From a virus (Duplodnaviria > Caudoviricetes): DNA of 64,000 nucleotides. Positions 6,980-51,685 of this stretch are shown here, one piece after another. The notes beneath the pieces were generated by a model. That model was not told the DNA's origin. It was given only the letters and a program-made list of their open reading frames with translations, and did no database searches. Position 1 is the stretch's first letter; each line of letters starts with the position of its first letter. Location: positions 9,765 through 73,764 of the IMG/VR virus record IMGVR_UViG_2531839010_000002, one strand, 5' to 3'. The translations under genes were made by a program, and so were the position numbers.

Positions 6980-7359
6980 TGCAGGTTAAATCAACCGTAA
7001 AGATGAATTTCCCGCGAATTAAGCAGCTTACACAGGCGGCAGTGACTGCCTTGGAGATGACAGCGGAGGCAATGCACACGGAAGTTGTCCAGGCCCAGGT
7101 GATGCCATTTGACACAGGCCACCTGGAGGAGGACAGCTTTTTTGCGGATTACAAAGAATGTGGTCAAGGGAAAGCGACGCTGGTGGTAAACACGCCCTAT
7201 GCGCGGCGTCTGTATTTTCATCCGGAATACAATTTCCAGACGGATGAGAACCCGTTTGCAGGCGGTGAATGGTATGAACCGTGGCTGCCCGGCGGCGTCA
7301 GTCAGGATTTTGCAAAGAATGCATTTAAGCGATTTTACAGGAAAGTAGGTGGTGTATGA
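6979..7359 (+). CDS. Tail completion protein (HK97 gp10-like / minor capsid)
   Basis: PFDTGHL and TPYARRLY motifs. Confidence 0.65.
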   Translation: MQVKSTVKMNFPRIKQLTQAAVTALEMTAEAMHTEVVQAQVMPFDTGHLEEDSFFADYKECGQGKATLVVNTPYARRLYFHPEYNFQTDENPFAGGEWYEPWLPGGVSQDFAKNAFKRFYRKVGGV

Positions 7360-7763
7360 TGCTGACCTTGGATGACATCCGGGGATACTTAGGAGGCCTG
7401 GGAATTACGGCTGAAAGGAATGTCTATATCGGGAAGCTGAACAGCAAGAAGGACCATTCCATTGGTGTATATCACCGGCAGGGCAGCGGTCCTCCCGTGA
7501 TGGCCCTGGGCGGCCATGACTACAGCAGCTACGATGTCCGGCGCATTTCCCTGCTGGTCCATTGGGACAGGGACGTACAGGCATCAGAGCGGGCCGCCTA
7601 TGAGCTGTATGAGAAAATTAAAAACGTATCCAGCCTGTCCATAGGGGATACACCCATTAATTGTATCATCCTCCAGGTACCGGAACCGGTTGACGTGGGA
7701 ACGGATGAAAAGGGTGTATATGAATATGCGATACGGCTGGATTTTGTGTATCAGAGAAAGTGA
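7356..7763 (+). CDS. Tail terminator-like protein
   Basis: Position immediately upstream of major tail gene. Confidence 0.55.
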   Translation: MMLTLDDIRGYLGGLGITAERNVYIGKLNSKKDHSIGVYHRQGSGPPVMALGGHDYSSYDVRRISLLVHWDRDVQASERAAYELYEKIKNVSSLSIGDTPINCIILQVPEPVDVGTDEKGVYEYAIRLDFVYQRK

Positions 7764-7773
7764 GGAATGAGAT

Positions 7774-8235
7774 ATGGCAGATGTAGCAGGAAGAGTTTAT
7801 CCGGTGCATAACAATGTGTTTAAGTTTGGCATAAAAGGCCTCGAAAGCACAGAGGAGGATATGGCTGTACCGTTAGATTTGGAGAATTTCGCTCCGTCCA
7901 TTGACGGTACCGTAGAGGAATGGTATGCCATGGATGCGAAGGGCTGGGCAAAAGCAGCCATGACAGGAAAGAAGCTGGGATTTTCCTTCAAAGGAAAGAG
8001 GTCAGTAGGTGACCCGACCAATGACTATATTGCCGGCCTGGCCTGGAAGTTCGGACAGGACGTCATGACGAAGTTTGAGTGGACCATGGTATCCGGCGCA
8101 AAGCTGGCCTGTGACGTGGTTGTGAATGTGACCACTCCGGGCGGCGGTGATACAACCAACATTGACACCCTGGAATTTGAAGTGACGGGATATGGCGCCC
8201 CGACTTTTACACCGGCACCCACACCAGGAGCATAA
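7774..8235 (+). CDS. Major tail (tube) protein
   Basis: 153 aa, beta-rich, precedes chaperones and tape measure. Confidence 0.75.
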   Translation: MADVAGRVYPVHNNVFKFGIKGLESTEEDMAVPLDLENFAPSIDGTVEEWYAMDAKGWAKAAMTGKKLGFSFKGKRSVGDPTNDYIAGLAWKFGQDVMTKFEWTMVSGAKLACDVVVNVTTPGGGDTTNIDTLEFEVTGYGAPTFTPAPTPGA

Positions 8236-8248
8236 GGAGGAATAACGA

Positions 8249-8551
8249 ATGGCAAGGAAAGTAGATATCACAGATAAATTGAGTTTTGAAGGGAATCCAT
8301 CCCTGGTAATCAAGGGAAAGGCCATAGAAGTGAATGCGGATGCCCCGACCATGCTTAAGGTCATGGGACTGATGTCAGCGAATGACCCTGGTGCACAGGA
8401 AATTCTGGAGGCCTACGACATGATGTTCCCAGAAAAGTCCAAGAAAGAGATAGAGAGGATGAAACTGGGATTCAATGACTTGGTTATTGTAGTGCAGGAA
8501 GCGGTCCAGCTCATTTCCGGCATGGAGGAACCTGCCGCGGGAGAGCAGTGA
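8249..8551 (+). CDS. Tail assembly chaperone
   Basis: Position between tail tube and tape measure genes. Confidence 0.65.
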   Translation: MARKVDITDKLSFEGNPSLVIKGKAIEVNADAPTMLKVMGLMSANDPGAQEILEAYDMMFPEKSKKEIERMKLGFNDLVIVVQEAVQLISGMEEPAAGEQ

Positions 8552-8564
8552 CCCGTACTACGAT

Positions 8565-8885
8565 ATGTTTGAGGACTGGGACCTGATAGTCTCCAGTTTT
8601 TTGTCGCAGTACGGGTTAAGAATCAGAACGAAGGAATTTGAAACAGTCTCCTGGGACGAATTCAAGGCACTGATTGCCGGCCTGTCCCCGGAGACTGCAT
8701 TAGGCCGTGTGGTAGCCATCCGGTCCGAAACAGATAAGGATATCATCAAACATTATACAAAGGACCAGCGCCAGATATATGACGATTGGCGCAACCGGGA
8801 AATGAAAGAAATGGATGAGAAAACCTTCGAGAAGGAAATGGCCGGCCTGGAGAAGATGTTTGCGGCTATGTGCGGAGGTGGTTAA
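8565..8885 (+). CDS. Gp15-like tail assembly protein (start uncertain)
   Basis: DWDLIVSSF..QYG motif of A118 Gp15-like proteins. Confidence 0.65.
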   Translation: MFEDWDLIVSSFLSQYGLRIRTKEFETVSWDEFKALIAGLSPETALGRVVAIRSETDKDIIKHYTKDQRQIYDDWRNREMKEMDEKTFEKEMAGLEKMFAAMCGGG

Positions 8886-9030
8886 GATTGAGAAAGTAAG
8901 ATGTGTAAGATGTGGACAGACCCTTCTCCTGGCGGAATACGTTAAGGGGGAAATTAAATGTCCCAGATGTAAAACCATAAACAGGTTGGATATAAAAATG
9001 ACAGAGCCTAGAGCCGCACCAAAGGAGTAG
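8878..9030 (+). CDS. Com-family (Mu Com-like) zinc-ribbon protein; start uncertain
   Basis: RCVRCGQTL...EIKCPRCKTIN two CxxC knuckles in ~50 aa. Confidence 0.75.
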   Translation: MVKIEKVRCVRCGQTLLLAEYVKGEIKCPRCKTINRLDIKMTEPRAAPKE

Positions 9031-9075
9031 CGAGCCAGAGCCTGCTTTTGAATTAAAAGGCAGGTGATATGTATG
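9003..9075 (+). promoter_or_regulatory. Four (A)GAGCC repeats plus SD-sequestering hairpin before tape measure ATG
   Basis: Repeats at 9003, 9010, 9032, 9037; stem CCTGCTTTT/AAAAGGCAGG covers start of SD AGGTGA. Confidence 0.65.
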
Positions 9076-12000
9076 GCAGCTGACAGCGTAGGCCAGATTG
9101 GCCTTGACCTTGTGGTCAACCAGAATCAATTTAAACAGCAGATGGCCGGAATACAGGGACTGGCTAAAAAGGCGGGAGCTGCTCTGGCGGCGGCGTTTGC
9201 AGTAAAGAAAATCATAGATTTCGGCGCACAGTGTATTGAATTGGGTTCCGACCTGGCGGAAGTACAGAACGTGGTAGATGTCACATTCCCGCGGATGTCC
9301 AAACAGGTGGATGACTTTGCTAAGAACGCCATAACCTCCTTCGGCCTGTCCGAGACCATGGCTAAGAAATTCACGGGTACATTCGGTGCGATGGCCAAGG
9401 CATTCGGCTTTGGTGAGCAGCAGGCCTATGAGATGGCCACGGCTTTAACTGGACTGTCTGGTGATGTGGCATCATTCTATAACATCAGCCAAGATGAAGC
9501 CTATACAAAGCTGAAATCCGTGTTCACGGGTGAGACGGAGACCCTTAAGGACCTGGGCATCGTCATGACCCAGAGCGCCCTGGACAGTTATGCCCTGGCG
9601 AACGGCTATGGCAAGGTAACGGCTAAGATGTCTGAGGCTGAGAAGGTGGCCCTGCGGTATAAGTTCGTGCAGGACCAGCTGTCCCTGGCATCCGGTGACT
9701 TCATCCGGACGGCGGATGGCTGGGCAAACCAGGTACGCGTCCTGAAGCTGCAGTTTGACAGCCTCAAGGCCACAATCGGTCAGGGGCTCATCAATGTGCT
9801 GACCCCGGTCATCCAGGTAATCAACCGCATCATCAGTAAGCTGATGAGCCTGGCCAATGCCTTCAAGGCATTTACGGAGATGGTGACCGGGAAGAAGGGT
9901 GGAGGAGGCACATCCGCAGCCACGGCCGGTATGGATGCGATGGCCCAGTCTGCGGATAAGGCCGGGGCGGCCGCCGGAGGAGCCGGCGGGGCTGCTAAGA
10001 AGGCCGCTAAAGACATGAAAAGTGTCAGCACAGGCATTGATGAGCTTAATATCATTAATCCTGATACCGATTCCGGAGGCGGTGGTTCCGGAGGTGGAGC
10101 TGATGGAGGGTATTCTGCGGACGAGTTCGATATGGGTGAGCTTGATACATCGGCCGTGGATGAGATGGACAGCAAGTATGCAGGACTGATTGAAAAGGCC
10201 AGAGAGCTTGCGGGACTGTTCAGGGAAGGATTCTGGGATGGTTTTGGCGATACGTCCGTCTTTGATAGTATACAGTCATCCATAGACAGCATCAAAGGCA
10301 GCCTGAGGGATATATTCACATCGCCGGAGGTGTTGGCTTCGGCTAATTCATTTGCTGACCAGGTTGCCTATAGCCTGGGACAGGTTGCAGGCTCCATGGC
10401 GAGCATCGGGACATCCATAGCGGATAACCTGCTGGGTGGGATTAGCCTGTTCCTGCAGCAGAATAAGGACCGTGTCATTGAGTATATTGTGTCCATGTTT
10501 GATATTGGCTCACGCATCGCGGAGATAAGCGGGAATTTTTCCAAAGCACTTGCAACTGTATTTTCATCTCTACGGAGTAACAGCGCCAAGCAGATTACAG
10601 CAGATATTATTGGGATATTTTCCGAGGCCTTCATGGGTGCCACGGAATTGGCAGGGACATTTGCGGCAGATGTACTGGACACCATTACAGCTCCGTTCAT
10701 CGAAAATGCGGATTACATCAAGACAACCCTGGAGGATACATTCAGTGCTGTAGAACCTGTCTTTTCTACGGTTAAAGATTTGGTTACAGAAACTTTTGAA
10801 AAGATTGGTACAACATATGATGAGCATGTAGCCCCCATGCTGGCAACTTTCAAACAAGGGTTCACGGAAATCGGCACCCTGCTGCTTGATGTCTACAACA
10901 CATATTTCCTGCCGGTATTACAGAACCTGTCATCTCGATTCGTTGAATTTAAGGACCAGTACCTGAGCCCGCTGATTGATAAGTTCCTGGAGTTTGGTGG
11001 AAAAGTAGCTGATGCGGTCACCAAATTGTGGACCGGAGCTCTACAGCCATTCATTGAATGGTTTATGTCCAATGTGGCACCGGTCATAGCTTCATGCCTA
11101 CAAGCCGCCATTGATACATTCTTTGGTTTCTGGGAATCCGTTTCGGGTATCATAGAAGGATTGCTCACAGCACTTGGCGGTGTAATTGACTTCGTTGTTG
11201 GTGTGTTCACTGGTGACTGGAGTCTTGCGTGGGAAGGAATCAAGGAAATATTCACCGGTATTTGGGAGACATTGAAAGAGCTCGTTTCTGGTGCAGTAAC
11301 ATTCATTCAAAATGTTGTTAACCTGGCGTGGACTGCTATATCTGGAGCAACCAGTACCATCTGGAACGGAATCAAGACACTTTTGAATACTCTTTGGAAC
11401 TGGCTTAAGTCTCTGGCCAATACATTATTCAATGCTATCAAGACATCCATCAGCACGGCCTGGGAGAATGTCAAGAGTAAGACATCAGAAATATGGGAAT
11501 CCATTAAGGAATTCGTATCAAATCTGTGGGATACAATCAAGACAGCAGTGGATGAGAAGTTCACGGCCATGAAAGATGCTATTGCCGGGGTCTGGGATAC
11601 GGTGAGAACAAAGACAAAAGAAACCTGGGACGGTATCTGGGCAGATATAAAGGGTATCATTAACATGATTATCAATGGTGTAGAGAGCATGGCCAACAGG
11701 GTTATTGATGCGATTAATGCCATGATAGACGCCGTAAATGAGGTGGCGGATAAGGTACCAGGCATCGGCGCTGATTTTATCCCGAATATACCAAACATCC
11801 ATCTTCCGCGTCTGGCCCAAGGCGGTTTTGTCCGCGCCAACACCCCGCAGCTGGCCATGATAGGTGATAACCGACACTATGGTGAGATTGTGGCTCCTGA
11901 GGATAAGATGCAGGCCATGGTAGACCGGGCGGTAGCTTTAGCTTCCCAAACAAGCAGTAATGGCATGAGTGAGCAGTATCTGTCCATCATGGTAGACCTG

Positions 12001-12123
12001 CTACAGCGTATCATTGACCTGATAGAGCAGATGGACTTGACGGTCAATATCGACATCCGGGAGATAAAGAAGAAATTAGTGGAACTGGATAAGCGTAATG
12101 GATACACCATGCGGACTACATAA
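9073..12123 (+). CDS. Tape measure protein
   Basis: ~1016 aa, Ala/Gly-rich, periodic Trp repeats. Confidence 0.92.
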   Translation: MAADSVGQIGLDLVVNQNQFKQQMAGIQGLAKKAGAALAAAFAVKKIIDFGAQCIELGSDLAEVQNVVDVTFPRMSKQVDDFAKNAITSFGLSETMAKKFTGTFGAMAKAFGFGEQQAYEMATALTGLSGDVASFYNISQDEAYTKLKSVFTGETETLKDLGIVMTQSALDSYALANGYGKVTAKMSEAEKVALRYKFVQDQLSLASGDFIRTADGWANQVRVLKLQFDSLKATIGQGLINVLTPVIQVINRIISKLMSLANAFKAFTEMVTGKKGGGGTSAATAGMDAMAQSADKAGAAAGGAGGAAKKAAKDMKSVSTGIDELNIINPDTDSGGGGSGGGADGGYSADEFDMGELDTSAVDEMDSKYAGLIEKARELAGLFREGFWDGFGDTSVFDSIQSSIDSIKGSLRDIFTSPEVLASANSFADQVAYSLGQVAGSMASIGTSIADNLLGGISLFLQQNKDRVIEYIVSMFDIGSRIAEISGNFSKALATVFSSLRSNSAKQITADIIGIFSEAFMGATELAGTFAADVLDTITAPFIENADYIKTTLEDTFSAVEPVFSTVKDLVTETFEKIGTTYDEHVAPMLATFKQGFTEIGTLLLDVYNTYFLPVLQNLSSRFVEFKDQYLSPLIDKFLEFGGKVADAVTKLWTGALQPFIEWFMSNVAPVIASCLQAAIDTFFGFWESVSGIIEGLLTALGGVIDFVVGVFTGDWSLAWEGIKEIFTGIWETLKELVSGAVTFIQNVVNLAWTAISGATSTIWNGIKTLLNTLWNWLKSLANTLFNAIKTSISTAWENVKSKTSEIWESIKEFVSNLWDTIKTAVDEKFTAMKDAIAGVWDTVRTKTKETWDGIWADIKGIINMIINGVESMANRVIDAINAMIDAVNEVADKVPGIGADFIPNIPNIHLPRLAQGGFVRANTPQLAMIGDNRHYGEIVAPEDKMQAMVDRAVALASQTSSNGMSEQYLSIMVDLLQRIIDLIEQMDLTVNIDIREIKKKLVELDKRNGYTMRTT

Positions 12124-12137
12124 AGGAGGTGGACTAA

Positions 12138-12512
12138 GTGCCAATCTATATCAATGGACATGAATATCCAAACTATGATCGGGGTCCAGGCCTAACCATT
12201 GCTACGAACGTGAACCAGGGCAAGAATGCCCTGGGGGAATTCGTAGGGCAGCGCGTGGGCCGTGACCAGGATAAGATTGACGGCCTGCAGTGGTCCTATC
12301 TGGATGCGGCGACCTGGAGCAGCATCCTTAAAGAGTTTGAGGAGTTTGTGGTGACGGTCAAGTTTCCGGACATGAAAAACAACTGCTGGAAAACAGAGCG
12401 GATGTATCCGGGGAACCGGACGGCCAAGATAGACGAGATAGGTCCGGATGGGCTGCCCACCATGTATAAAGACTGTAAGGTGAACCTGATAGACTGCGGG
12501 GTGATGGAGTAG
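12138..12512 (+). CDS. Distal tail (Dit-like) protein
   Basis: Directly after tape measure gene. Confidence 0.55.
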   Translation: MPIYINGHEYPNYDRGPGLTIATNVNQGKNALGEFVGQRVGRDQDKIDGLQWSYLDAATWSSILKEFEEFVVTVKFPDMKNNCWKTERMYPGNRTAKIDEIGPDGLPTMYKDCKVNLIDCGVME

Positions 12513-15277
12513 TGCAGGCGGCAAGTAATGAATATAAGGACATGATGCGCAGGAAGTGGAGAAACCCACTGTCTTACCTGCGTGTCACCATCGGCCTGAT
12601 TAACCAGCAGGCCCAGGCATCCGCTTACATACCTGAGCGGGATGTGTATACCTATTATTCCGACCTAGTAAAGCCCATGGATAACTACAAGGTACAGGAG
12701 CTATATGCAACCTGTGACCAGGACTATACCACGGTGGATGGCAGCATGTATTTCCTTCCCAAGGATGCAGCAGACGTGGTGCTCAATCAGGGAATCGTGA
12801 CGGATGGTCTTCAGGGGGAAATTGAAATCCGGTTTCCCGTTCAATATGACATTAAGGGGCTGACCGTGGAATTTGGCAAGGCATATCCCGTAGATTTTAC
12901 CATCATTTCAGACAACCGGACCTTGAATGTAACGAATAATGCGGATGGCCATTATGTGACGGAGGAGATTTTTGAGGGAGCCACTTACCTGAGGTTTGTG
13001 CCTGCAGCCATGGTCAATGGACGGAGCCGGTTCCACATCAATCAGATTACCATGGGTATTGGCGTCTATTTTGACAGCAAAAAAATACTGTCCGCAACCA
13101 AAAAAGAACATATCAGTCCTATATCGGAGGAGTTGACAACCATAGATTTTTCCGTAACGGTGGATAATAAGGACCGGGCCTATGATGTGGAGAATGAAGA
13201 AAGTACAGTGAACTTCTTGGAAATTGGTCAGAGTATCGAGGCGCTTTACGGCCAGGCCATGGATGATGGAACGATTGAGTGGATACCGGGAACGTCACTT
13301 GCACTGAAATCATGGTCAGCTGATGATACGGAGATGGACTTCCAGGCATCAGACTGTTTTGAGGGGATGGACGGCACATATTACCGTGGCCGGTATCATC
13401 CGGACGGTATGAGCCTGTATGACATGGCTGTGGATGTCCTTGCGGATGCCCAGGTGGATTACCGGGACTACTGGATAGATCCATATCTTAAGGACGTTCT
13501 GGTGGTTAATCCGATGCCGGTGGTAGCGCATAAGGAAGCCCTGCAGCTGATTGCTAATGCCGGCAGATGTATCCTGTACCAGGACCGGACCGGCAGGATA
13601 ATCCTTAAGTCCAGTTTTGTACCGGATATGGAGGCGGCGTCTGATAACGAGACATACTTTTCCCATGCGTCAGCCATACTTGACCACGCGGAAAAGGAAG
13701 CGTATGCCCTGCCTGGTCAGGATTACACAGGCACATCCGGCGCACAGTATTTCCTTCCCAGGCAGACGACCAATGGAGCCACATATCTCAATACGGGCTA
13801 TGTGTCTGAGGCCGTCGCCGAGGAAGACGGGCTGTTTACGGACAATCCCACAGTGGAAATAACTACGGAGGCGGCATACAAGTGTTTTGGACTAACCCTG
13901 GAATTTGGTCGCAACTGGCCGGATACAGTTATCTTCCATGCCTACTACAATAACGCGGCTATGGAAGATTATACAGTCCCTGGATTGACACAGACTTACG
14001 TGGTCAGCCATGAGTTCCCAGAGTTTGACCGGTTGGTGCTGGAATTTTCCAAGGGATGTCCCAATAACCGTGTAGTGCTGGACAATATAATCTTCGGCGA
14101 CAGCACTGATTATGTCCTGGAATATGGTGTAGAGTTGACCAAGACCCCAAAGGGCACGCAACTGACCAAGGTTAGGGAACTGCAGGTCGTACGCACCATA
14201 TACAATCTCAGTACAGAGGATGCAAAGGAGCTGGCAAGGGAGACCATAAGTGTAACCGCTTTAGACAACCGATATACGTTTTATTTTTCTAATCCATCCT
14301 ATGATTTAAAGACATACGTCCCGGTTTATGTGGAGGCAACCAATATGGTTCAGAACGGGTCTTTTGATACCGGCGTGACCGGATGGATCAACGCACAGTA
14401 TGACGCAGCCAGAAAATGCACATACGTTGTCTCGGAAGATGGAAACGCAGTCCACATAGTACAAACTGTACAGATGATATCCGGACATAAATATTACTTG
14501 CGGGGGAATTTCATGCGGGAGGAATCGCCCGGTGAGTATTCGGGAAATGATGAATGCGATTTGGTCAGGGCGATTGCCAATAGAGAATCATTTAATATTA
14601 ATCTACGTCCAGAGACTATTGCGCCAGATGGAGTGTGGCATACCAAATCAGCCATTGACACGGTTGAGGCAACAGGAGAGTGGGACCTAAGGATTTATAC
14701 CTATGGAAACAAAAGGCTTTATATAGATTCAATTCTTTTGGTAGATTTGACAGCAGCTTGGGGAATCGGGAATGAACCGGATATAGAGTGGTGTGATAAG
14801 TTCATCGGCTATTTCACTGGTATTGCAAGTATCCCGAAATATGGGTGTGAGATTGTGGATAGTAGTGCCTATTACGCAACGGTGGAGCTTACAGGAATCA
14901 CAGGGCCGACAGAGGTGGTCGTTACAGGCAGGGAATATGTTACTACCCAGCCCAAGGTAAGCAGACAGCTAAATCCTACCGGCAGCCTGGAGGCGTGGAA
15001 TAATCCGCTTGTGTCCGACACGGTCCATGCCGCGAACCTGGCGGATTGGATTGGGGACTACATGAAATCAGACCGGGAATATGACCTGTCATACCGGGGA
15101 GAGCCACGGATTGATGCCAACGACATAGCATTCCTGGAAAATAAGTATGTGCCTGACCTACTGATACGGGTAACGGACCATACCCTGAAATTTAATGGTG
15201 GGCTTAGCGGTACCATCAAGGCAAGGAGGGACATGAGTTATGTGGCAACAGCCAAAAACAGACTGGCAGGCCAGTGA
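12512..15277 (+). CDS. Baseplate/tail-tip protein with internal repeat and inserted carbohydrate-binding-like module
   Basis: 921 aa; duplicated QDYT..YFLP and GLT(V/L)EFG segments; NMVQNGSFDTG..W module. Confidence 0.65.
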   Translation: MQAASNEYKDMMRRKWRNPLSYLRVTIGLINQQAQASAYIPERDVYTYYSDLVKPMDNYKVQELYATCDQDYTTVDGSMYFLPKDAADVVLNQGIVTDGLQGEIEIRFPVQYDIKGLTVEFGKAYPVDFTIISDNRTLNVTNNADGHYVTEEIFEGATYLRFVPAAMVNGRSRFHINQITMGIGVYFDSKKILSATKKEHISPISEELTTIDFSVTVDNKDRAYDVENEESTVNFLEIGQSIEALYGQAMDDGTIEWIPGTSLALKSWSADDTEMDFQASDCFEGMDGTYYRGRYHPDGMSLYDMAVDVLADAQVDYRDYWIDPYLKDVLVVNPMPVVAHKEALQLIANAGRCILYQDRTGRIILKSSFVPDMEAASDNETYFSHASAILDHAEKEAYALPGQDYTGTSGAQYFLPRQTTNGATYLNTGYVSEAVAEEDGLFTDNPTVEITTEAAYKCFGLTLEFGRNWPDTVIFHAYYNNAAMEDYTVPGLTQTYVVSHEFPEFDRLVLEFSKGCPNNRVVLDNIIFGDSTDYVLEYGVELTKTPKGTQLTKVRELQVVRTIYNLSTEDAKELARETISVTALDNRYTFYFSNPSYDLKTYVPVYVEATNMVQNGSFDTGVTGWINAQYDAARKCTYVVSEDGNAVHIVQTVQMISGHKYYLRGNFMREESPGEYSGNDECDLVRAIANRESFNINLRPETIAPDGVWHTKSAIDTVEATGEWDLRIYTYGNKRLYIDSILLVDLTAAWGIGNEPDIEWCDKFIGYFTGIASIPKYGCEIVDSSAYYATVELTGITGPTEVVVTGREYVTTQPKVSRQLNPTGSLEAWNNPLVSDTVHAANLADWIGDYMKSDREYDLSYRGEPRIDANDIAFLENKYVPDLLIRVTDHTLKFNGGLSGTIKARRDMSYVATAKNRLAGQ

Positions 15278-28026: not shown

Positions 28027-29852
28027 AAAAGACATTGGACATCAAAAAGCTCATTTTGCTGAATATGCCGTATATCCTGCTGGGGCTGTTTGCTACCAAT
28101 TTTGGAGAGGCATGGCGAATGGCACAAGGGGCGGATGCTTCAGAAAAGTTTCTTTCGCTGATTGCGGTTCTGCCTGGGGCGCTGCAAAGTTTCTGGCCAA
28201 GCCTGCATCCATTGGACTTGTTGGTAGGACTGTGTTGTGGAGGCAGTCTGAGGCTGGCGGTGTATCTTAAAAGCAAGAACGCCAAGAAATATCGACATGG
28301 TTTGGAATATGGTTCGGCCCGCTGGGGAACCCGTGAGGATATTGCACCTTACGTTGATCCTGTATTTCAGAACAATGTGATCCTGACGAAAACGGAGAGC
28401 CTGACCATGAACAGCCGCCCCAAGGACCCCAAGACTGCCAGAAACAAAAATGTAATGGTGATTGGCGGCTCCGGTTCCGGTAAGACCCGATTCTGGCTGA
28501 AACCCAACCTGATGCAGATGCACAGCTCCTATGTTGTGACGGACCCGAAGGGAACAATTCTGGTGGAGTGCGGAAAAATGCTCCAAAGGGGTGCGCCCAA
28601 GCTGGGGAAGGACGGAAAGCCCATGAAGGATAAGCACGGCAAGGTCATTTATGAGCCGTACCGAATCAAGGTCCTAAATACAATCAACTTCAAGAAGTCC
28701 ATGCACTATAACCCTTTCGCCTATATCCATAGCGAAAAGGACATCTTGAAGCTGGTAACAACGCTGATCGCCAATACCAAAGGCGAAGGCAAGGCCGGAG
28801 ACGATTTCTGGGTAAAAGCAGAAACCTTGTTGTACTGCGCGCTTATTGGCTATATCCATTATGAGGCTCCGGTGGAGGAGCAGAACTTCTCCACCCTCAT
28901 TGAGTTCATCAATGCGATGGAAGTCCGTGAGGATGACGAGGAGTTCAAAAACCCCGTAGACCTGATGTTTGATGCACTGGAATCGGAAAAGCCAAACCAC
29001 TTCGCAGTGCGGCAGTATAAGAAATATAAGCTGGCCGCCGGCAAAACCGCTAAGTCGATTTTGATTTCCTGCGGTGCGCGTCTGGCCGTATTTGATATTG
29101 CGGAGCTGCGCGAGGTTACATCCTACGATGAGTTGGAACTGGATACGCTGGGAGACAGAAAAACGGCTCTGTTCCTCATTATGAGTGATACGGATGACAG
29201 TTTTAACTTTCTCATTTCCATGTGCTACACCCAGTTATTCAACCTGCTTTGTGAAAAGGCCGATGATGTGTATGGCGGCAGGCTTCCGGTTCATGTGCGC
29301 TGTCTGATTGATGAGTGTGCCAACATCGGGCAGATTCCGAAGCTGGAAAAGCTGGTGGCCACCATCCGAAGCCGTGAAATCTCTGCCTGTCTGGTGTTGC
29401 AGGCACAGAGCCAGCTCAAGGCAATTTACAAAGATAATGCCGATACCATCATCGGCAATATGGATACTTCCATCTTCCTGGGTGGCAAAGAGCCAACAAC
29501 GCTGAAAGAGCTGGCGGCTGTTCTGGGAAAGGAGACCATAGACACTTACAACACCGGAGAGAGCCGGGGACGGGAGACCTCCCACTCGCTTAACTATCAG
29601 AAATTGGGAAAAGAGCTGATGAGCCAGGACGAGCTGGCAGTTATGGATGGCGGCAAGTGCATCTTGCAGTTGCGCGGTGTGCGTCCGTTTCTTTCAGACA
29701 AGTATGACATTACCAGACACCCTAATTTCAAATACACAGCTGATGCAGACAAGCGAAATACCTTTGATATTGAAGCATTTTTGTCTGCCAGACTAAAACT
29801 CAAGCCTGATGAGGTCTGCGATGTATATGAAGTAGACACGGAGGGCGTGTAA
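28023..29852 (+). CDS. virD4: VirD4/TraG type IV coupling protein
   Basis: GGSGSGKT Walker A, VVTDPKG, LIDECANIG, QAQSQL. Confidence 0.93.
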   Translation: MKKTLDIKKLILLNMPYILLGLFATNFGEAWRMAQGADASEKFLSLIAVLPGALQSFWPSLHPLDLLVGLCCGGSLRLAVYLKSKNAKKYRHGLEYGSARWGTREDIAPYVDPVFQNNVILTKTESLTMNSRPKDPKTARNKNVMVIGGSGSGKTRFWLKPNLMQMHSSYVVTDPKGTILVECGKMLQRGAPKLGKDGKPMKDKHGKVIYEPYRIKVLNTINFKKSMHYNPFAYIHSEKDILKLVTTLIANTKGEGKAGDDFWVKAETLLYCALIGYIHYEAPVEEQNFSTLIEFINAMEVREDDEEFKNPVDLMFDALESEKPNHFAVRQYKKYKLAAGKTAKSILISCGARLAVFDIAELREVTSYDELELDTLGDRKTALFLIMSDTDDSFNFLISMCYTQLFNLLCEKADDVYGGRLPVHVRCLIDECANIGQIPKLEKLVATIRSREISACLVLQAQSQLKAIYKDNADTIIGNMDTSIFLGGKEPTTLKELAAVLGKETIDTYNTGESRGRETSHSLNYQKLGKELMSQDELAVMDGGKCILQLRGVRPFLSDKYDITRHPNFKYTADADKRNTFDIEAFLSARLKLKPDEVCDVYEVDTEGV

Positions 29853-43392: not shown

Positions 43393-43422
43393 TGGGGTGG
43401 CAATATGCCACCCCACCTTTTT
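43393..43422 (+). terminator. Internal terminator before helicase gene
   Basis: TGGGGTGGCA-ATA-TGCCACCCCA then CCTTTTT. Confidence 0.6.
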
Positions 43423-44224
43423 ACCCCAAAACTGAAAGGAGGACAGAACACTATGCCAACCAAAGCTGAACTATATGCACAGATGGCGGAGAAAGTGGCA
43501 ACGCAGCTCACGGGAAGCTGGCAGGAATGGGCAGGGTTTCTCACCACTGCTTCCCGCCTTTACAAGTACCCGTTCCATGAGCAGTTGATGATCTACGCCC
43601 AGCGTCCGGACGCTACCGCCTGTGCAGAGTACGATTTGTGGAATGAAAAGATGGGGCGGTATGTAAGGCGCGGCTCCAAGGGGATCGCTCTGGTGGACGA
43701 TTCCGGGGACAGACCCCGCCTGCGCTATGTTTTTGATATTTCCGACACCGGAACCCGTGAACATTCCCGCACTCCCTGGCTGTGGCAGCTGGAGGAGCGC
43801 CATCTGGATTCCGTGCAGGTCATGCTGGAGCGCACCTATGATGTTTCCGGTGATGACCTTGCCGGACAGCTCACTGAGGTAGCCGGAAAACTGGCTGAGG
43901 AATACTGGACGGAGCATCAGCAGGACTTCTTCTATATCGTTGACGGTTCCTTTTTGGAGGAATATGATGAGTTTAACATCGGAGTACAGTTCAAGGCAGC
44001 AGCCACCGTCAGTATCACTTATGCTTTGATGTCCCGCTGTGGACTGGAACCGGAACGCTACTTCGACCACGAAGATTTCATGGCGATCTTTGATTTCAAT
44101 ACTCCGGCAACCATCGGAGCGTTGGGAACAGCGGTCAGCCAGATCAACCAGCAGGTGCTGCGGCAGATCGGCGTTACCGTCCGAAATGCAGAGCGCGAAG
44201 CCAACCAAGAAAGGAGCAAACAAG

Positions 44225-44581
44225 ATGAACAATCCCATGACCTATATCCAGAACGGAGACTATCTGATTCCCGACCTGAAGCTGAGCCAGCAGCCGGAGA
44301 AACCCCTGGGCAAGTACGGCAGGATGAGGAAAACCTACCTGAAGGAACACCGTCCCATCCTCTACAACCAGATGTTGCTGAGCGAGAAGCTGTACCCGCA
44401 CCTTCTGGAGATCGACGAGACCGCCCAGAGCAGACTGGAGCAGATGATGCCCCAGCTGGCGAAGGAAGCGGGAGCCACCGAGGAACTGAAAGCCAGCGAT
44501 CCCATGAAGTGGGTGGGGCTGATGAACACCTGCAAAGCTCAGGCCGAGGAAATCCTGATGACGGAGCTTATCAACAGCTGA
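44225..44581 (+). CDS. TnpV-like protein (118 aa) nested in +1 frame of helicase gene
   Basis: SD GAAAGGAG; GDYLIP..YLK.H..ID..AQ.R..TE.LKA..W.G..N motif shared with 51311-51685. Confidence 0.75.
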   Translation: MNNPMTYIQNGDYLIPDLKLSQQPEKPLGKYGRMRKTYLKEHRPILYNQMLLSEKLYPHLLEIDETAQSRLEQMMPQLAKEAGATEELKASDPMKWVGLMNTCKAQAEEILMTELINS

Positions 44582-47500
44582 CTCTAAACCTGTTCCTCTC
44601 CGAAGCGGAACAGATCCAATCCATAGATGAAGCAGAGAATGTAGCGCATACATCCTCTGCTTTTTCTTTTGCCCAAAATGACATCGACCATGTGCTGCGT
44701 TTGGGCGGTAATACAGACCGTCAAAGGGAGCGTGTGGTTGCAGCCTTTGAAAAGCAGAAAACCACCGCTGAGATTGCTGAGATACTGAAAACGCTGTACC
44801 ACGGCGGTAACGGCCTTGGCAGTGTGAGCGCATGGTATGCCGAGGATGGTATCCATCTTTCCCACGGGAAGTCTGTCCGTTATGACAGGTCTGCCCAGGT
44901 CATTTCCTGGGAGAGCGCCGCAGAGCGTATCGGGGAGCTTTTGGAAAGTGGTCAGTTTGCCTCCAATGTGGAGCTTGCAGAAGCGGCAGGCTATGAACGC
45001 TCCCTCCTTTCAGAAAAGCTCTGGCATCTGTACCACGATTTCAGCGAGGAAGCCAGAGAAGCCGGATATTTGTCCTGCCTGTCAGAGATCAAAGGCAATG
45101 GTTTCCCGGAGGAGACCCGCCGCCTGACGGAGCAGCTGAGTGACCCGGCTTTCCGCCAGACACTCAAGGAAGAATACGCTGCCTTCTGGACTGCCTATCA
45201 GCAGGACCGTGACCTGTTGCGTTTTCGCTATCATAGACCGAGGGAGATCTGGGAGAACCTGAAGGACCTTGACCTGCCCCGCAGGACCTTTTCTTCAGAG
45301 CTTTCCCAAGTGCCAACCGTCCAGCACTTCATTACCGAGGATGAGATCGACGCCGCTATGACCGGCGGCAGCAGTTTCGCCGGAGGAAAAGGCCGTATCT
45401 ATGCGTTCTTCATGGCAAACCATACGGATAAGGAGAAAGTGAGATTCCTCAAAGACGAGTATGGCATTGGCGGACGCTCTCATGCCCTGTCCGGCGCAAC
45501 ACACAGCGGCGAAGATCACGATGGGAAAGGACTGCACTATAAAAAGCAGGACTGCCCGGATGTTCACTTGAACTGGGAAAAGGTTGCCAAGCGCATTACC
45601 TCTCTTGTCCAGAAAGGCCGCTATCTTACCGAACAGGAACAGGCGCAGTATGACAAAATCCAGGCTGAAAAGGAATTGGCAGAAGAAGATGCCATCCAAG
45701 CCCAGCAGCCGGAGGTGGAGAAAGAAACGCCAAAGCCTACCCTTCGGGAGCAGTTTGAGCAGTATAAGACTGTGGTGACTGCCGCCATTTCCGAGGATAC
45801 CGCATACCGCAATGCCTGCGGGCATTCTGACCGTGAAAATGCTGTCATCGAGGGCAATGCCGCTGTGCGCCGTGCGGTCCTTGGTTCTAAGGATATGGAG
45901 CTGATCCGCCTCTATTCGGATGTGCCGGAGTTCCGACAGCGACTGCACCGGGAAGTGATCGACGAAACCTATCCAAAGCTCCATGAACTTCTGCGCCCTC
46001 TTTCTCAGGAAGATATTGATACTGCCATTTGTGCATGGAACGGCAATATCGAGAGTAAACACGCTGTCGTCCGTTATATGAAAGACCATGCAAGAGAGAA
46101 AGATACCGCTGCATGGCTGGCTCAGGAATACGGCGGCAGTAACAGCAACAGCCTGTTCGTTGTCCGTGCCGGAAGCCCGGAGGAAACGCAGCTGCCCTGG
46201 CCGAAGGTACAGCGCAGGCTTGCCCAGCTTATTCAGGAGGATCGGTTCTATACCGAAGAAGAACAGGACCGTTTTGACGACATCGACCCAATCGCCATCC
46301 GGGAAGCTCTGGAGGAAAGAGGGATCGTCAACGGCCAGGTGGCAGACCCGGAAAAACTGGACAATGACCCGTTTATCCAGCAGGTGGTGTCGGATGTAGA
46401 GCAGATCGCAGCTGCCGAGACAGAACAGACTTCCGAGGTTTCCATTTCCGATGAGGAATATGATGCCGTTCGCCGCCCGACTCCGCAAAGAACCTCCTAT
46501 GATCCTGCCGCCCCGGTTTATGCCGTGGGCGATACCGTGTATATCGAGGATGACGCCTATCAGATCACCGAGCTACGGGATGACACCGTGCAGCTTCTGC
46601 CTACCGGCATGGTATATCCCATCTATCGGGCAGAGCGCAAAGAACAGTTCGAGCAGCTGCTTCGGGCAGACCGCCGCAATGCTTACTATACCGAGTTTCT
46701 TCCCATTGACCCGGACAAGGCAGATCAAGACCTGCGGGATGTATTGGCCCATGGACTGATGGATGAAGCGGATAAACAGCAGCTTTCCACGCTACTGCAA
46801 TCTGGCAGGAGCAACAGTGAGATCGCCTACTGGCTGAGCAGAGCCTACCCTCATGAGATTGAGACCCTGAATCTGGAGACCGGCGATATTGCCGATTACC
46901 GTACCACGGCACAGGGCATGGAGCTGGAAGTCCTGGACGCAGAGGAAAAGCGTCTGGCTGTGCTGTATTTCCGCTGGGATGAGGTTGCGCCTTTGCTGCG
47001 CGGGATGTATGCCCGTCAGCAGGACGGCTTTGGACAGGAACAGCCCCAACCGGCTACCGAATCCCCGACCTTCCATTCCGAGACCATGGCCGTCTATCCG
47101 GGCGATAAGAACCATCTACCTTATGATGTGGTGGTGGAACGGTTGCATATTGAGGAGCCGGAGCCGCCAGCCCCTGTAACAGAGCCGGAGAAAACCTTTG
47201 AGGAAGTGCTGGATGAACACCCGGTTTCCATTCAGGTCAACGGCCAGTGGCAGACCTTCCCCAATGCCAAAGCTGCCGAGGAAGCCTCCTATGAGGAATA
47301 CAAGGCTAACCTGCGCCGCAATGCACAGAACTTCCGCATTACCGATGAGCATTTGGGCGAAGGCGGTCCAAAAACCAAGTTCCAGGCAAATGTTAATGCC
47401 ATTCGTTTGCTGAAAGAGCTGGAAGCTGCCGGACAGCAGGCAAGCCCCGAACAACAGGAGATTCTTTCCCGTTATGTGGGCTGGGGCGGTCTTTCAGATG

Positions 47501-50500
47501 CCTTTGACTCGGAAAAACTGGCATGGGTTTCCGAGTATGCCCAGCTGAAAGAGTTGCTGACCCCGGAGGAATATGCCGCCGCCAGAAGCTCTACCCTCAA
47601 TGCCCATTACACCAGCCCTACGGTTATCCAGGCAATCTATGAAGCGGTGGGGCGCATGGGCTTTGAGACCGGAAATATTTTGGAGCCATCTATGGGTGTG
47701 GGCAACTTCTTCGGTATGCTGCCGGAGGAAATGAGAAACAGCCGTCTATACGGTGTGGAGCTGGACCCGATTTCCGGGCGCATCGCAAAGCAGCTCTATC
47801 CCAAGGCGGACATCACAGTAGGCGGCTTTGAGACCACTGACAGGCGGGACTTCTTTGACCTTGCCATCGGCAATGTGCCTTTCGGTCAGTATCAGGTCAA
47901 CGACAAAACTTACAACAAGTTAAACTTTAGTATTCACAACTACTTTTTCGCCAAAGCACTGGATCAGGTGCGCCCCGGCGGTGTGGTAGCTTTTGTGACC
48001 TCCCGCTATACCATGGACGCCAAGGATTCCACCGTGCGCCGCTATCTTGCCCAGCGTGCCGAGCTGCTGGGAGCGATCCGTCTGCCTAATGACGCGTTCA
48101 AAAAGAATGCCGGTGCCGAGGTTGTATCGGACATCATCTTTCTCCAAAAGCGGGACCGTCCGCTGGACATTGCACCAGAGTGGACGCAGACCGGACAAAC
48201 GGAGGATGGGTTTGCCATCAACCGGTATTTTATCGACCACCCGGAAATGGTGCTGGGCAGACAGGAGCCGGTAAGCACTGCTCATGGTATGGATTACACC
48301 GTGAACCCTATCGAGGGACTGGAGCTTTCCGACCAGCTGCATGATGCGGTGAAGTACATTCATGGCACTTATCAGGAGGCAGAGCTGCCGGAGCTGGGCG
48401 AAGGCGAAGCCATTGACACCTCCATTCCTGCCGACCCAAATGTGAAGAACTATTCCTATGCCATTGTAGACGGGCAGGTGTACTATCGGGAAAACAGCCG
48501 CATGGTGCGCCCTGACCTCAACGCCACCGCCGAAGCCCGCGTGAAAGGTCTTGTGGGACTGCGTGATTGTGTGCAGGAACTGATCGACCTTCAGATGGAT
48601 GCAGCGGTTCCAGACAGCACCATTACCCAAAAACAGGCGGAACTGAACCGGCTCTATGACAGCTTTTCTGCCAAATACGGTCTCATCAATGACCGTGCAA
48701 ACCGCCTGGCCTATGCAGACGATTCTTCCTATTACCTGCTCTGTGCGCTGGAAGTTATTGACGAGGACGGAAAGCTGGAGCGCAAGGCGGATATGTTCAC
48801 CAAACGAACCATCAAGCCCCATCAGGCAGTGGCTGCTGTGGATACGGCAAGCGAAGCACTGGCGGTGTCCATCTCGGAAAAAGCCTGCGTAGATATGGGC
48901 TATATGAGCCAGCTTAGCGGAAAAACAAAAGAAGAACTGGAGGGAGAACTGCAAGGTGTGATCTTCCGTGTACCGGGACAGCTGGAACAGGACGGATCGC
49001 CCCATTATGTGACTGCTGATGAATACCTTTCCGGCAATGTACGCCGCAAACTGCGTCAGGCACAGAGGGCGGCACAGCAGGACCCGGTTTATGCAGTCAA
49101 TGTGGAAGCCCTTACCGCCGCCCAGCCCAAAGACCTGAATGCGTCGGAGATCGAGGTGCGTCTGGGCGCTACCTGGATTGACAAGGAGTACATCCAGCAG
49201 TTTATGTATGAGACCTTCAACACCCCGGTTTATCTCCAGCGCAGCATTGAGGTCAACTATTCCTCCTTTACTGCTGAATGGCAGATCAAGGGGAAATCTT
49301 CTGTATCCTACAACGATGTGGCAGCCTACACCACCTACGGAACCAGCCGTGCCAATGCCTACAAGATTTTGGAGGACAGCCTGAACCTGCGGGATGTCCG
49401 TATCTATGACACCATAGAGGACGCAGACGGAAAAGAGCGCCGCGTGCTGAATGCCAAGGAGACCACTCTGGCTGCCCAACAACAGCAGGCTATCCGGGAA
49501 GCCTTTAGGGACTGGATCTGGAGAGACCCGGAGCGCCGCCAGACTTTGGTGCGCCAGTATAACGAAGAAATGAACGCTACCCGTCCCCGCGAGTATGATG
49601 GCAGCCATATCACTTTTGGCGGCATGAACCCGGCCATTACCCTGCGGGAACACCAAAAAAGCGCTATCGCCCATGTGCTGTATGGCGGAAATACCCTGCT
49701 GGCACACGAAGTAGGCGCGGGCAAAACCTTTGAGATGGTGGCCGCTGCGATGGAAGCCAAACGCCTGGGCTTGTGCCAGAAATCTCTCTTTGTGGTTCCC
49801 AACCACCTGACTGAGCAGTGGGCATCGGAGTTTCTGCGCCTCTATCCTTCTGCCAACATCTTAGTCACAACCAAAAAGGACTTTGAGACCCATAACCGCA
49901 AGAAGTTCTGCGCCCGTATTGCGACCGGTGACTACGACGCCATCATCATGGGACACAGTCAGTTTGAGCGTATCCCCATCAGCCGGGAGCGTCAGGAACG
50001 GCTTCTCTATGAGCAGATCGACGAGATCACCGAGGGGATTGCAGAGGTACAGGCCAGCGGCGGCGAGCGTTTTACCGTCAAGCAGCTGGAGCGTACCAGA
50101 AAGTCTCTGGAAGCCAGACTGGAAAAGCTGCAAGCCGAAGGGCGAAAAGACGATGTGGTAACCTTCGAGCAGCTGGGTGTGGACCGTTTGTTTGTGGACG
50201 AGGCCCACAACTATAAAAACCTGTTTCTATACACAAAAATGCGGAATGTGGCTGGTCTGTCCACATCGGACGCGCAGAAATCCTCCGATATGTTTGCCAA
50301 GTGCCGCTATATGGATGAGATCACCGGAAACCGTGGCGTGATTTTTGCCACCGGCACCCCGGTCAGCAACTCCATGACCGAGCTTTACACCATGCAGCGT
50401 TATCTTCAGTATGAACGCCTGCAAGAACTGAACATGACCCACTTCGACTGCTGGGCTTCCCGATTTGGAGAGACCGTCACAGCATTGGAGCTGGCACCGG

Positions 50501-51265
50501 AAGGCACCGGCTACCGGGCAAGAACGAGATTCAGCAAGTTCTTTAATCTGCCGGAGCTGATGAACCTGTTCAAAGAAGTGGCGGACATCAAGACCGCCGA
50601 CCAACTGAACCTGCCCACCCCGGAGGTGGAATACCACAACATCGTGGCGCAGCCTACCGAACATCAGCAGGAAATGGTCAAGGCTCTTTCGGAGCGTGCA
50701 TCGCTGGTACACAGCGGAACCGTTGACCCGTCTCAGGACAATATGCTCAAGATTACCTCGGATGGCCGTAAGCTGGGGCTTGACCAGAGGATCGTCAACC
50801 AGATGCTGCCGGACGAATCTGGCACAAAGGTCAATCAGTGTGTGGACAACATCATGCAGATCTGGCGGGACGGCAAAGCTGACAAGCTGACCCAGTTGGT
50901 GTTCTGCGACATTTCCACGCCCCAGTCAGCTCTCTCCAAAAAGGCAGCCAAACAGCTGGACAATCCGCTGCTTCACGGGTTGGAAGAAGCAATCCCACTG
51001 GATGAACCGGAGCCTGCCTTTACCATCTATGAGGACATCCGCCAGAAGCTCATCGCCCAGGGGATGCCTGCCGAGCAGATCGCCTTTATCCACGAAGCCA
51101 ACACAGAGGTACGGAAAAAGGAACTGTTCTCCAAGGTCCGCACCGGGCAGGTGCGTGTCCTATTAGGAAGCACTGCCAAGATGGGTGCTGGCACCAATGT
51201 GCAGGACCGCCTTGTGGCGTTGCATGATTTGGACTGTCCGTGGCGTCCGGGAGATGTAGGACGGA

Positions 51266-51281
51266 TTTTGCGGACATTCAA
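51266..51281 (+). repeat. Left subterminal inverted repeat TTTTGCGGACATTCAA (partner 62178-62194)
   Basis: Reverse complement of TTGAACTGTCCGCAAAA with one-base gap. Confidence 0.8.
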
Positions 51282-51310
51282 AATAAAAAAGAATGTGGAG
51301 GTAACAGACA

Positions 51311-51685
51311 ATGGCAAAATCATTATTTGAGGAACTGGGCGGCAAATACGAAAGGCAAGGCGATTATCTAATTCCATGTATAACTTTACCCGCCGAAGAA
51401 GAACAGGCAATAGGTATCTGGGGGCAGCGGCATTTGGATTATCTGAAGCATCACTGTAAAGTTACATACACCAATCTTCTTACAAGCGGCAGACTTAACG
51501 CTTACCTTGCCGACATTGACAGACAGGCACAGGAACGCTTTGAAAGGCTCATAGAGGGTATGAAACAGGCACAGGGCATAACGGAACAGCTAAAGGCAGA
51601 AAACGCCTTAGAATGGACAGGATGCCTCAATAACATAAGGGCTTGTGCGAGGGAGATTGTGGAAAAGGAAATTATTTTTGCATAA
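51311..51685 (+). CDS. tnpV: TnpV family protein
   Basis: LFEELGGKYERQGDYLIP motif; SD GGAGG. Confidence 0.85.
   Translation: MAKSLFEELGGKYERQGDYLIPCITLPAEEEQAIGIWGQRHLDYLKHHCKVTYTNLLTSGRLNAYLADIDRQAQERFERLIEGMKQAQGITEQLKAENALEWTGCLNNIRACAREIVEKEIIFA

Follow-up and report, generated by a model that had tools for sequence, protein, structure and literature searches.

The window analysed here, a stretch of 64,000 nucleotides of phage DNA, derives from an IMG/VR provirus record, of which a 98%-identical copy is found in Enterocloster aldenensis; the phage is a Clostridia siphophage, present as a prophage of this species. Its siphovirus tail module spans positions 7356-15277 of the + strand of the window, on which all the genes and RNA features of the module described below are located. 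The first gene of the module codes for the tail terminator (PF12691), and it is followed by the gene for the major tail protein (7774-8235; phrog_820), by two small open reading frames (ORFs) in the chaperone slot (8249-8551 and 8565-8885) and, at 9073-12123, by the gene for a tape-measure protein (TMP) of 1016 aa (phrog_1535, E 2.4e-155). The second chaperone-slot ORF is Phage_Gp15-like and of the tail-assembly-chaperone type (PF06854, E 2.4e-9; phrog_8355 and phrog_706), and its stop codon, TAA, occupies positions 8883-8885. Between this stop and the TMP gene, which is the proposed regulated target, lie a small zinc-ribbon gene (8887-9030), separated by a single nucleotide from the stop of the gp15-like ORF, and two RNA hairpins.

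A +1 (or -2) frameshift may connect the two ORFs of the chaperone slot (8249-8885). The frame of the second is open from around position 8491 and overlaps the final ca. 20 codons of the first, which ends with CAG UGA C; also, only the C-terminal halves of the Pfam Gp15 profile (170 positions) and of phrog_706 (201 positions) match the second ORF. Such a frameshift, of the lambda G/GT type, may coexist with the module described here. The TMP of the window, as well as those of two related loci (L064 and L133), matches phrog_1535 from profile position 134 onward only, which suggests that many members of this family have some 130 extra N-terminal residues or were annotated from an upstream start. 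The provirus also contains an initiator-like tRNA-Met with anticodon CAU, located 1794 nt ahead of the window (G000:C1:7898-7971; L174 899-972) and confirmed by both ARAGORN and Rfam (60.6 bits); it shows three G-C pairs in the anticodon stem, a C at position 33 (loop CCCAUAA) and a U1:U72 mismatch.

Contigs from RNA libraries of two mouse-gut studies span the zinc-ribbon gene, the RNA element and the 5' end of the TMP gene (8883-9218 and 8538-9899). They constitute weak evidence of expression, being compatible with separate transcripts or with DNA carry-over.

A Com-family zinc ribbon and its start codon

An earlier note on this DNA, made from the sequence alone, had described a protein of about 50 aa with two CxxC motifs and likened it to Com of phage Mu. 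The small ORF is indeed a member of the Com family: its product matches PF10122 (Zn_ribbon_Com) with 25.0 bits, above the gathering cut-off of 22.9 (23.5 bits in the genome scan), and also phrog_6417 ('translational regulator', 3.7e-10) and phrog_13819 ('gpCom', 7.3e-5), and in blastp comparisons it shows 40% identity with Mu Com over ca. 30 residues, with residue 1 aligned in both proteins. The CxxC-x15/16-CxxC motif lies near the N-terminus (Cys 6, 9, 25 and 28) and is invariant in 14 and in 18 homologs; the cysteines of Mu Com are C6, C9, C26 and C29 (PMC3299994). Across diverse homologs there are 10 invariant residues, comprising the four cysteines and six others.

The AF2 model of the protein is a four-strand ribbon (pLDDT 70-86), with a C-terminal tail, residues 37-47, that is predicted to be disordered (pLDDT ca. 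49). Sequence searches among solved structures retrieved no Com relative and only weak zinc-ribbon look-alikes (E >= 0.07), and Foldseek comparison of the AF2 model with the PDB yielded no match at E <= 0.001, its weak top rows being zinc ribbons (a Pol I subunit, LysW and eS27). To our knowledge, no structure of a Com-RNA complex exists.

Gene callers place the start of this gene at a conserved 'Val' codon, the GTG at 8878, which is also where the region marked in the earlier note begins. The ORF ends with the TAG at 9028-9030, but the GTG belongs to the Shine-Dalgarno (SD) sequence (G)GAGGTGAT. The com SD, GGAGGTG, occupies positions 8874-8880, its GGAGG ending 8 nt ahead of an ATT at 8887, and a (G)AGGTGAT block is kept upstream of the start in nearly all homologs. 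We conclude that the start is most likely the ATT at 8887, giving a product of 47 aa, rather than the GTG at 8878, because the GTG is inside the SD, because there are in-frame stops upstream and because relatives have an ATG at the same position. Thus, two homologous loci (L052 and L061) have an in-frame TAA between the SD-embedded GTG and the first cysteine, and two others (L096 and L088) have no canonical start after the last in-frame stop, a canonical start being wholly absent in four loci. Conversely, five loci (L064, L118, L133, L169 and L037) carry an ATG five codons ahead of the first cysteine, which is the position of the ATT in the window. Among 47 distinct loci, the codon at the start position is ATT in 29, ATA in 10, ATG in five, and ATC, TTG and TTT in one each. 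A start at 8887 also matches the N-terminal spacing of Mu Com (MKSIRC versus (M)EKVRC). The gene is left unannotated or is mis-started because about 85% of the copies begin with AUU, AUA or AUC.

Non-canonical starts may not be restricted to com. In two relatives, L038 (position 3210) and L039, the TMP gene begins with ATA-AGC-GAT-GG, where relatives have ATG-AGT/GCT-GAT-GG, and the sole in-frame canonical start is a GTG within the SD, so that their TMP may have a non-AUG start.

The zinc ribbon might also be conceived as a C-terminal extension of the gp15-like chaperone, produced by a +1/-2 frameshift for which the RNA structures described below would be recoding signals. It is read in the +1 frame with respect to the gp15-like ORF, which it overlaps, and several database entries are called with 71-87 aa because the frame is open upstream in the clade of the window. 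However, many homologs have in-frame stops one to five codons ahead of the start position, low-GC relatives have a gap of 60-85 nt, including a terminator-like hairpin, before com, a conserved SD precedes the com start, and the hairpins are downstream of the entire zinc ribbon and not at the ORF overlap. We consider this origin of the zinc ribbon highly improbable, and reject a frameshift product of the G/GT type in view of the own SD and start position of com and of the upstream in-frame stops in many homologs.

Repeats and hairpins ahead of the tape-measure gene

The end of the com ORF and the sequence that follows contain four GAGCC repeats, at 9004, 9011, 9032 and 9038. These are the repeats described in the earlier note (AGAGCC at 9003, 9010 and 9037, and GAGCC at 9032), two in the end of the ORF and two past its stop, and all of them occur at those coordinates. 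The + strand of the window contains 69 GAGCC, but nowhere else are there four within 40 nt, and only one of 2000 random placements equals this clustering; counted over the whole window and both strands, GAGCC is not enriched (122 observed versus 134 expected). A cluster of three copies occurs at 47155-47186, inside a 2641-aa ORF (43405-51330), where it encodes an E/P-rich linker (EEPEPPAPVTEPE); we judged it coincidental.

The second and third repeats form both strands of the lower stem of a hairpin, P1 (9011-9036), which is absent from the earlier note. Its 5' arm (9011-9019) and 3' arm (9027-9036) enclose the loop CAAAGGA (9020-9026), and the closing pair C9019:G9027 generates an apical CC(N)4GAG, flanked by more GAG/CC motifs; the com stop, UAG (9028-9030), falls in the 3' arm. 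Upstream of P1 there is a purine-rich segment, AAAUGACAGAG (8996-9006), containing an AGAG whose alignment columns are invariant. Com might make a second contact here, or the segment might pair, in an alternative helix (P0), with the 5' arm of the next hairpin.

This second hairpin, P2 (9040-9065), is a candidate translation-inhibition structure. It consists of a bulge-free stem of 10 bp, in which GCCUGCUUUU (9040-9049) pairs with AAAGGCAGGU (9056-9065), and a loop of 6 nt (9050-9055), and it is present in both the minimum free energy (MFE) and the centroid structures. Its energy is -13.5 kcal/mol, compared with -2.6 +/- 1.8 for shuffled sequences, none of which, out of 1000, was as stable. 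RNA folding therefore bears out the hairpin of the earlier note, albeit with slightly different boundaries from the 9041-49/9055-64 given there, and also its proposal that the hairpin buries the start of the SD of the TMP gene. This SD, AGGTGA (9062-9067), lies 5 nt ahead of the ATG at 9073, its AGGTG is invariant in 30 of 30 aligned sequences, and its AGGU is paired in the 3' arm of P2, leaving the SD of the window with an unpaired probability of 0.002. By contrast, the idea that the last GAGCC acts as a lever on the hairpin cannot be generalised, since this fourth repeat, part of which falls within the P2 arm, occurs in the clade of the window only, and most relatives read CCAAUGCC or CCAAGCC instead.

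The layout of P1 and P2 resembles that of the RNA target of Mu Com. SELEX with the Com zinc finger and SHAPE footprinting defined a CC(N)2-3GAG motif in a loop with an invariable C-G closing pair, in which Com binding protects the GA, and the target hairpin adjoins the translation-inhibition structure (PMC6483171). Likewise, the Com site in Mu, AUGC[CUGCGA]GCAU, is directly ahead of the hairpin that hides the mom start. Judging from its sequence, which is close to the SELEX motif (N=4 in the window versus N=2-3), P1 is a putative Com-binding site.

A protein that binds P1 might equally be imagined as a repressor or autoregulator, stabilising the closed form or blocking its own translation, and in this way capping TMP or Com. 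Both hairpins form together in the predicted ground state, P1 includes the 3' end of the com ORF, and the computed structures are compatible with either sign of the effect. Nevertheless, the only characterised member of the family is an activator, and acts on the same two-hairpin layout (PMC6483171); besides, P2 alone is predicted to close the SD almost fully, so that a repressor would have hardly anything to add. For these reasons we hold repression or autoregulation to be unlikely.

Conservation of the element and its linkage to com and the TMP gene

Tail-type Com ORFs were collected from 80 IMG/VR loci, from Anaerostipes phage AC844P1 and from 18 Clostridia genomes, and pairs were counted in a set of 47 distinct elements from Clostridia phages and prophages. 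Downstream of each Com ORF there is the same order of features: the AAAG.CAGAG purine segment, P1, a linker of 3-5 nt, P2, AGGUG and the start of a long ORF. P1 together with P2 is the MFE structure in nearly all of 30 homolog sequences folded singly. In an alignment of the 47 sequences that was fitted to the structural model, and that gave the best covariation figures, 98.6% of the cells are paired, compared with 34-43% with slid partners, and covariation is 0.282 versus 0.141 in shuffles, with none of 500 shuffles equalling it. In an unfitted MAFFT alignment the corresponding values are 96.2% versus 36-43%, and 0.200 versus 0.119, again with none of 500 shuffles equalling the observed value.

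P1 covaries at four pairs, with counts such as CG36/AU7/UA3, AU24/GC16/GU3 and AU42/GC5. Its apical closing pair is C:G in the 47 sequences, and most copies have a C-N3-GA loop, those of the clade of the window having C-N4-GA. P2 has a variable pair (GU20/AU14/GC13) and occurs with compensatory CCUGC/GCAGG, CCUGC/GUAGG and CCUAC/GUAGG variants; P2 energies average -13.2 kcal/mol, and the mean unpaired probability of the SD over the 47 elements is 0.06. The earlier note had proposed, as a check of its reading, that the stem and the repeats should be kept in homologs that have the protein, and that the hairpin should covary among them. Both are the case: P2 and the GAG/CC-rich P1 region are kept in the 47 elements, and covariation exceeds that of all 500 shuffles. 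A scan of positions 8700-9300 against Rfam 15 retrieved no relevant family, only a chance miRNA match on the other strand (E 4.6).

Several aspects of this conservation concern the RNA and not the protein that it partly encodes. Translation passes through the invariant AGAG in phase 0 in 29 sequences, in phase 2 in 17 and in phase 1 in one, and the com stop is found at six different positions within the element, which indicates that the constraint is on the RNA; the C-terminal tails of the proteins (e.g. TEPRAAPKE, GRVQRRTVE and KDRA) differ because the reading frame over the element differs. The many G:U pairs make sense solely in RNA of the sense strand. This bears directly on an alternative at the DNA level, in which the protein would be a DNA-binding transcription regulator and the repeats an operator, promoter or terminator, as might be supposed from the name given by NCBI to a 95%-identical protein, 'Com family DNA-binding transcriptional regulator'. 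But conservation obeys sense-strand RNA pairing, with many G:U pairs whose counterparts on the opposite strand would be C:A, there is no promoter-like or terminator-like site within 8900-9100, and P2 is not followed by a U-run. Given the G:U-rich covariation and the lack of promoter and terminator signals, a role at the DNA level has very little probability, and we rejected it.

The variable position of the com stop also weighs on the notion that P2 is a fixed attenuator, with ribosomes that finish the small ORF melting the structures and reinitiating at the TMP gene, and with a peptide that does not bind RNA. A virion needs few TMP molecules, and a fixed attenuator consisting of P2 alone could therefore suffice. 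Moreover, the small ORF abuts the stop of the upstream gene and, in the window, its own stop (9028-9030) is just 10 nt ahead of P2, such that ribosomes terminating there would extend to the base of this hairpin. In 17 of the 47 elements, however, the stop precedes P1 and is separated from P2 by about 50 alignment columns, and with six stop positions overall, unwinding by a terminating ribosome cannot be a conserved mechanism. Translational coupling would also leave unexplained the conservation of the zinc ribbon, with its 10 invariant residues, as well as the Com-target-like loop and covarying stems of P1, and the weak AUU/AUA start argues against heavy ribosome traffic. We therefore regard coupling as rather improbable.

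The element is strictly linked to tail-type com genes. A covariance model built on it finds exactly one match per tail-Com locus, directly behind the ORF (49-100 bits), and none in Mu or in the other Com loci examined, which are mostly proteobacterial and some of which are near methyltransferase-type genes. When 151 Lachnospiraceae genomes were searched by means of the RNA model only, four matches were retrieved; three of these lie in new loci (L168-L170), each with a Com ORF directly upstream, and the fourth was the host prophage, previously found through its Com ORF. The downstream gene codes for TMP in the window and in seven diverse loci, with members of three PHROG families (1535, 1533 and 58). 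Conversely, both hairpins are absent from three phages that lack Com but have homologous gp15 and TMP genes. In these Com-less relatives the SD of the TMP gene is exposed, with unpaired probabilities of 0.86 in Streptococcus phage Javan351, 0.54 in Dulem virus 35 and 0.29 in Solobacterium phage SMO_1P. This strict linkage, and the contrast with Com-less phages, indicate that protein and RNA element travel with the TMP gene as one module of ca. 190 nt, located in the gap between the chaperone and TMP genes.

In tblastn searches of 50,697 phage records, we found a close homolog only in Anaerostipes phages AC844P1-3. The com gene is unannotated in these cultured phages (L001 3632-3766; positions 29580-29720 of the AC844P1 record), and the AC844P1 record shows a 187-nt 'intergenic' gap ahead of the TMP gene. 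A search for PF10122 in 400 genomes of the class Bacilli gave five matches, and the one inspected precedes a methyltransferase-type gene.

In the low-GC relatives, where 60-85 nt separate the com ORF from the upstream gene, a strong terminator-like hairpin of 12 bp followed by a T-run precedes the com SD (positions 2958-2984 in L044; also in L033, L038, L043, L047, L049 and others). In these phages, com and the TMP gene may be placed behind a transcriptional stop or attenuator, a site that the window does not have.

A candidate Com-type switch on a tail gene

Our results support the reading of the earlier note that a Com-like protein gates TMP translation through the SD hairpin. We consider it probable that this Clostridia siphophage controls its TMP gene by a Com-type translational switch, in which binding of the protein to the RNA, opening of P2 and activation of the gene are inferred. 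On the late tail mRNA, the SD of the TMP gene would be locked in P2, and TMP would be poorly translated by default. The AUU start, preceded by a strong SD and 1 nt past the chaperone stop, would yield small amounts of the 47-aa zinc ribbon, which would bind P1, next to P2, by recognising the CC(N)3-4GAG loop, closed by C:G, and the GAG/CC motifs that flank it. Binding would shift the RNA to a form in which the 3' arm of P2 and the SD are freed, possibly by pairing of the P2 5' arm with the conserved AAAG.CAGAG segment upstream (P0). TMP synthesis would follow, and would scale with the expression of the upstream tail chaperone genes.

P1 fits closed and open forms of P2 alike, and the route from binding to the opening of P2 is not evident from the fold. 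As to P0, pairing of 8996-9006 with the P2 5' arm gives 91% of paired cells, compared with 47-69% with slid partners, and when the 3' arm of P2 is withheld, the purine segment pairs with the 5' arm, beneath P1, in 44 of 47 sequences. The helix has weaknesses, because 14 sequences cannot form one of its pairs and 19 cannot form another, and its mean energy has a z of only -0.71 against shuffles. P0 is thus suggestive, and we offer it as an idea rather than as a result.

The resemblance to Com-mom of Mu extends over protein, gene order and RNA. In both systems, the gene directly upstream of the target encodes a small zinc protein of the CCCC type whose tail is disordered (here by prediction), the RNA site is in the 3' part of the com ORF itself, and beside a short hairpin with a C:G-closed CC(N)3GAG loop there is another one, in which translation start signals of the following gene are hidden. 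The differences are also considerable. In the present case a virion structural gene, not one for a DNA-modification enzyme, is the target, the host is a member of the Clostridia whereas that of Mu belongs to the Proteobacteria, and the inhibitory hairpin hides the SD, that of Mu hiding the start codon. In addition, the element described here has a linker of 3-5 nt, an extra conserved AGAG segment upstream and an AUU/AUA start, and protein identity is only about 40% over 30 residues.

The genes that follow a Com module can vary, as is apparent from Com homologs upstream of DNA methyltransferases, such as FluMu HI1522.1/hin1523, Pnm1 and that of phage B3 (PMC3299994). In agreement with this, more distant homologs from our own searches (L071, L072, L122 and L176) have the Com ORF before a DNA methyltransferase-type gene. 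However, the targets of methyltransferase-linked homologs are still DNA-modification genes, and our RNA model matches none of these loci. Full-text literature searches retrieved Com tied to mom and to DNA methyltransferases only, with no link to tape-measure genes.

Within tail modules, the closest parallel is the G/GT frameshift of phage lambda, also a translational device that is found in the same slot, from the major tail protein to the TMP gene, and that sets the ratios of tail assembly proteins. In lambda, slippage leads to a fusion protein, whereas here we find a separate, predicted RNA-binding protein and an SD-sequestering hairpin. For the start codon, a parallel exists in infC, the gene of IF3, in which a conserved AUU start behind a good SD keeps synthesis of the regulator low and tunable. 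The AUU start behind an SD is shared, but IF3 feedback is for us an analogy only for the AUU/AUA start of the Com-like gene.

The tape-measure protein is the ruler of tail length, and it is aggregation-prone and needs chaperones. With little more than even confidence, we generalise the model to a class of Firmicutes siphophages that would gate TMP by a Com-type switch, with the regulator made from a conserved AUU/AUA start and coupled to the chaperone genes, in such a way that TMP would be licensed only once chaperones are present.

Com has so far been a curiosity of Mu-like phages, in which it controls DNA-modification genes; in the phages studied here the same logic is found on the tape-measure gene, and a core tail gene seems to have come under the control of a translational switch that was already known. 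If true, this would be the first Com-type translational activator acting on a virion structural gene, and the RNA element the first defined Com RNA motif outside the Proteobacteria. Its confirmation would reveal a layer of regulation in tail assembly beside the classic G/GT frameshift, and would flag a systematic annotation error, by which com genes are unannotated or mis-started. It would likewise provide a compact and portable protein-RNA translational switch from Gram-positive anaerobes, and 47 natural variants of a Com target that would be useful for understanding how this zinc finger reads RNA.
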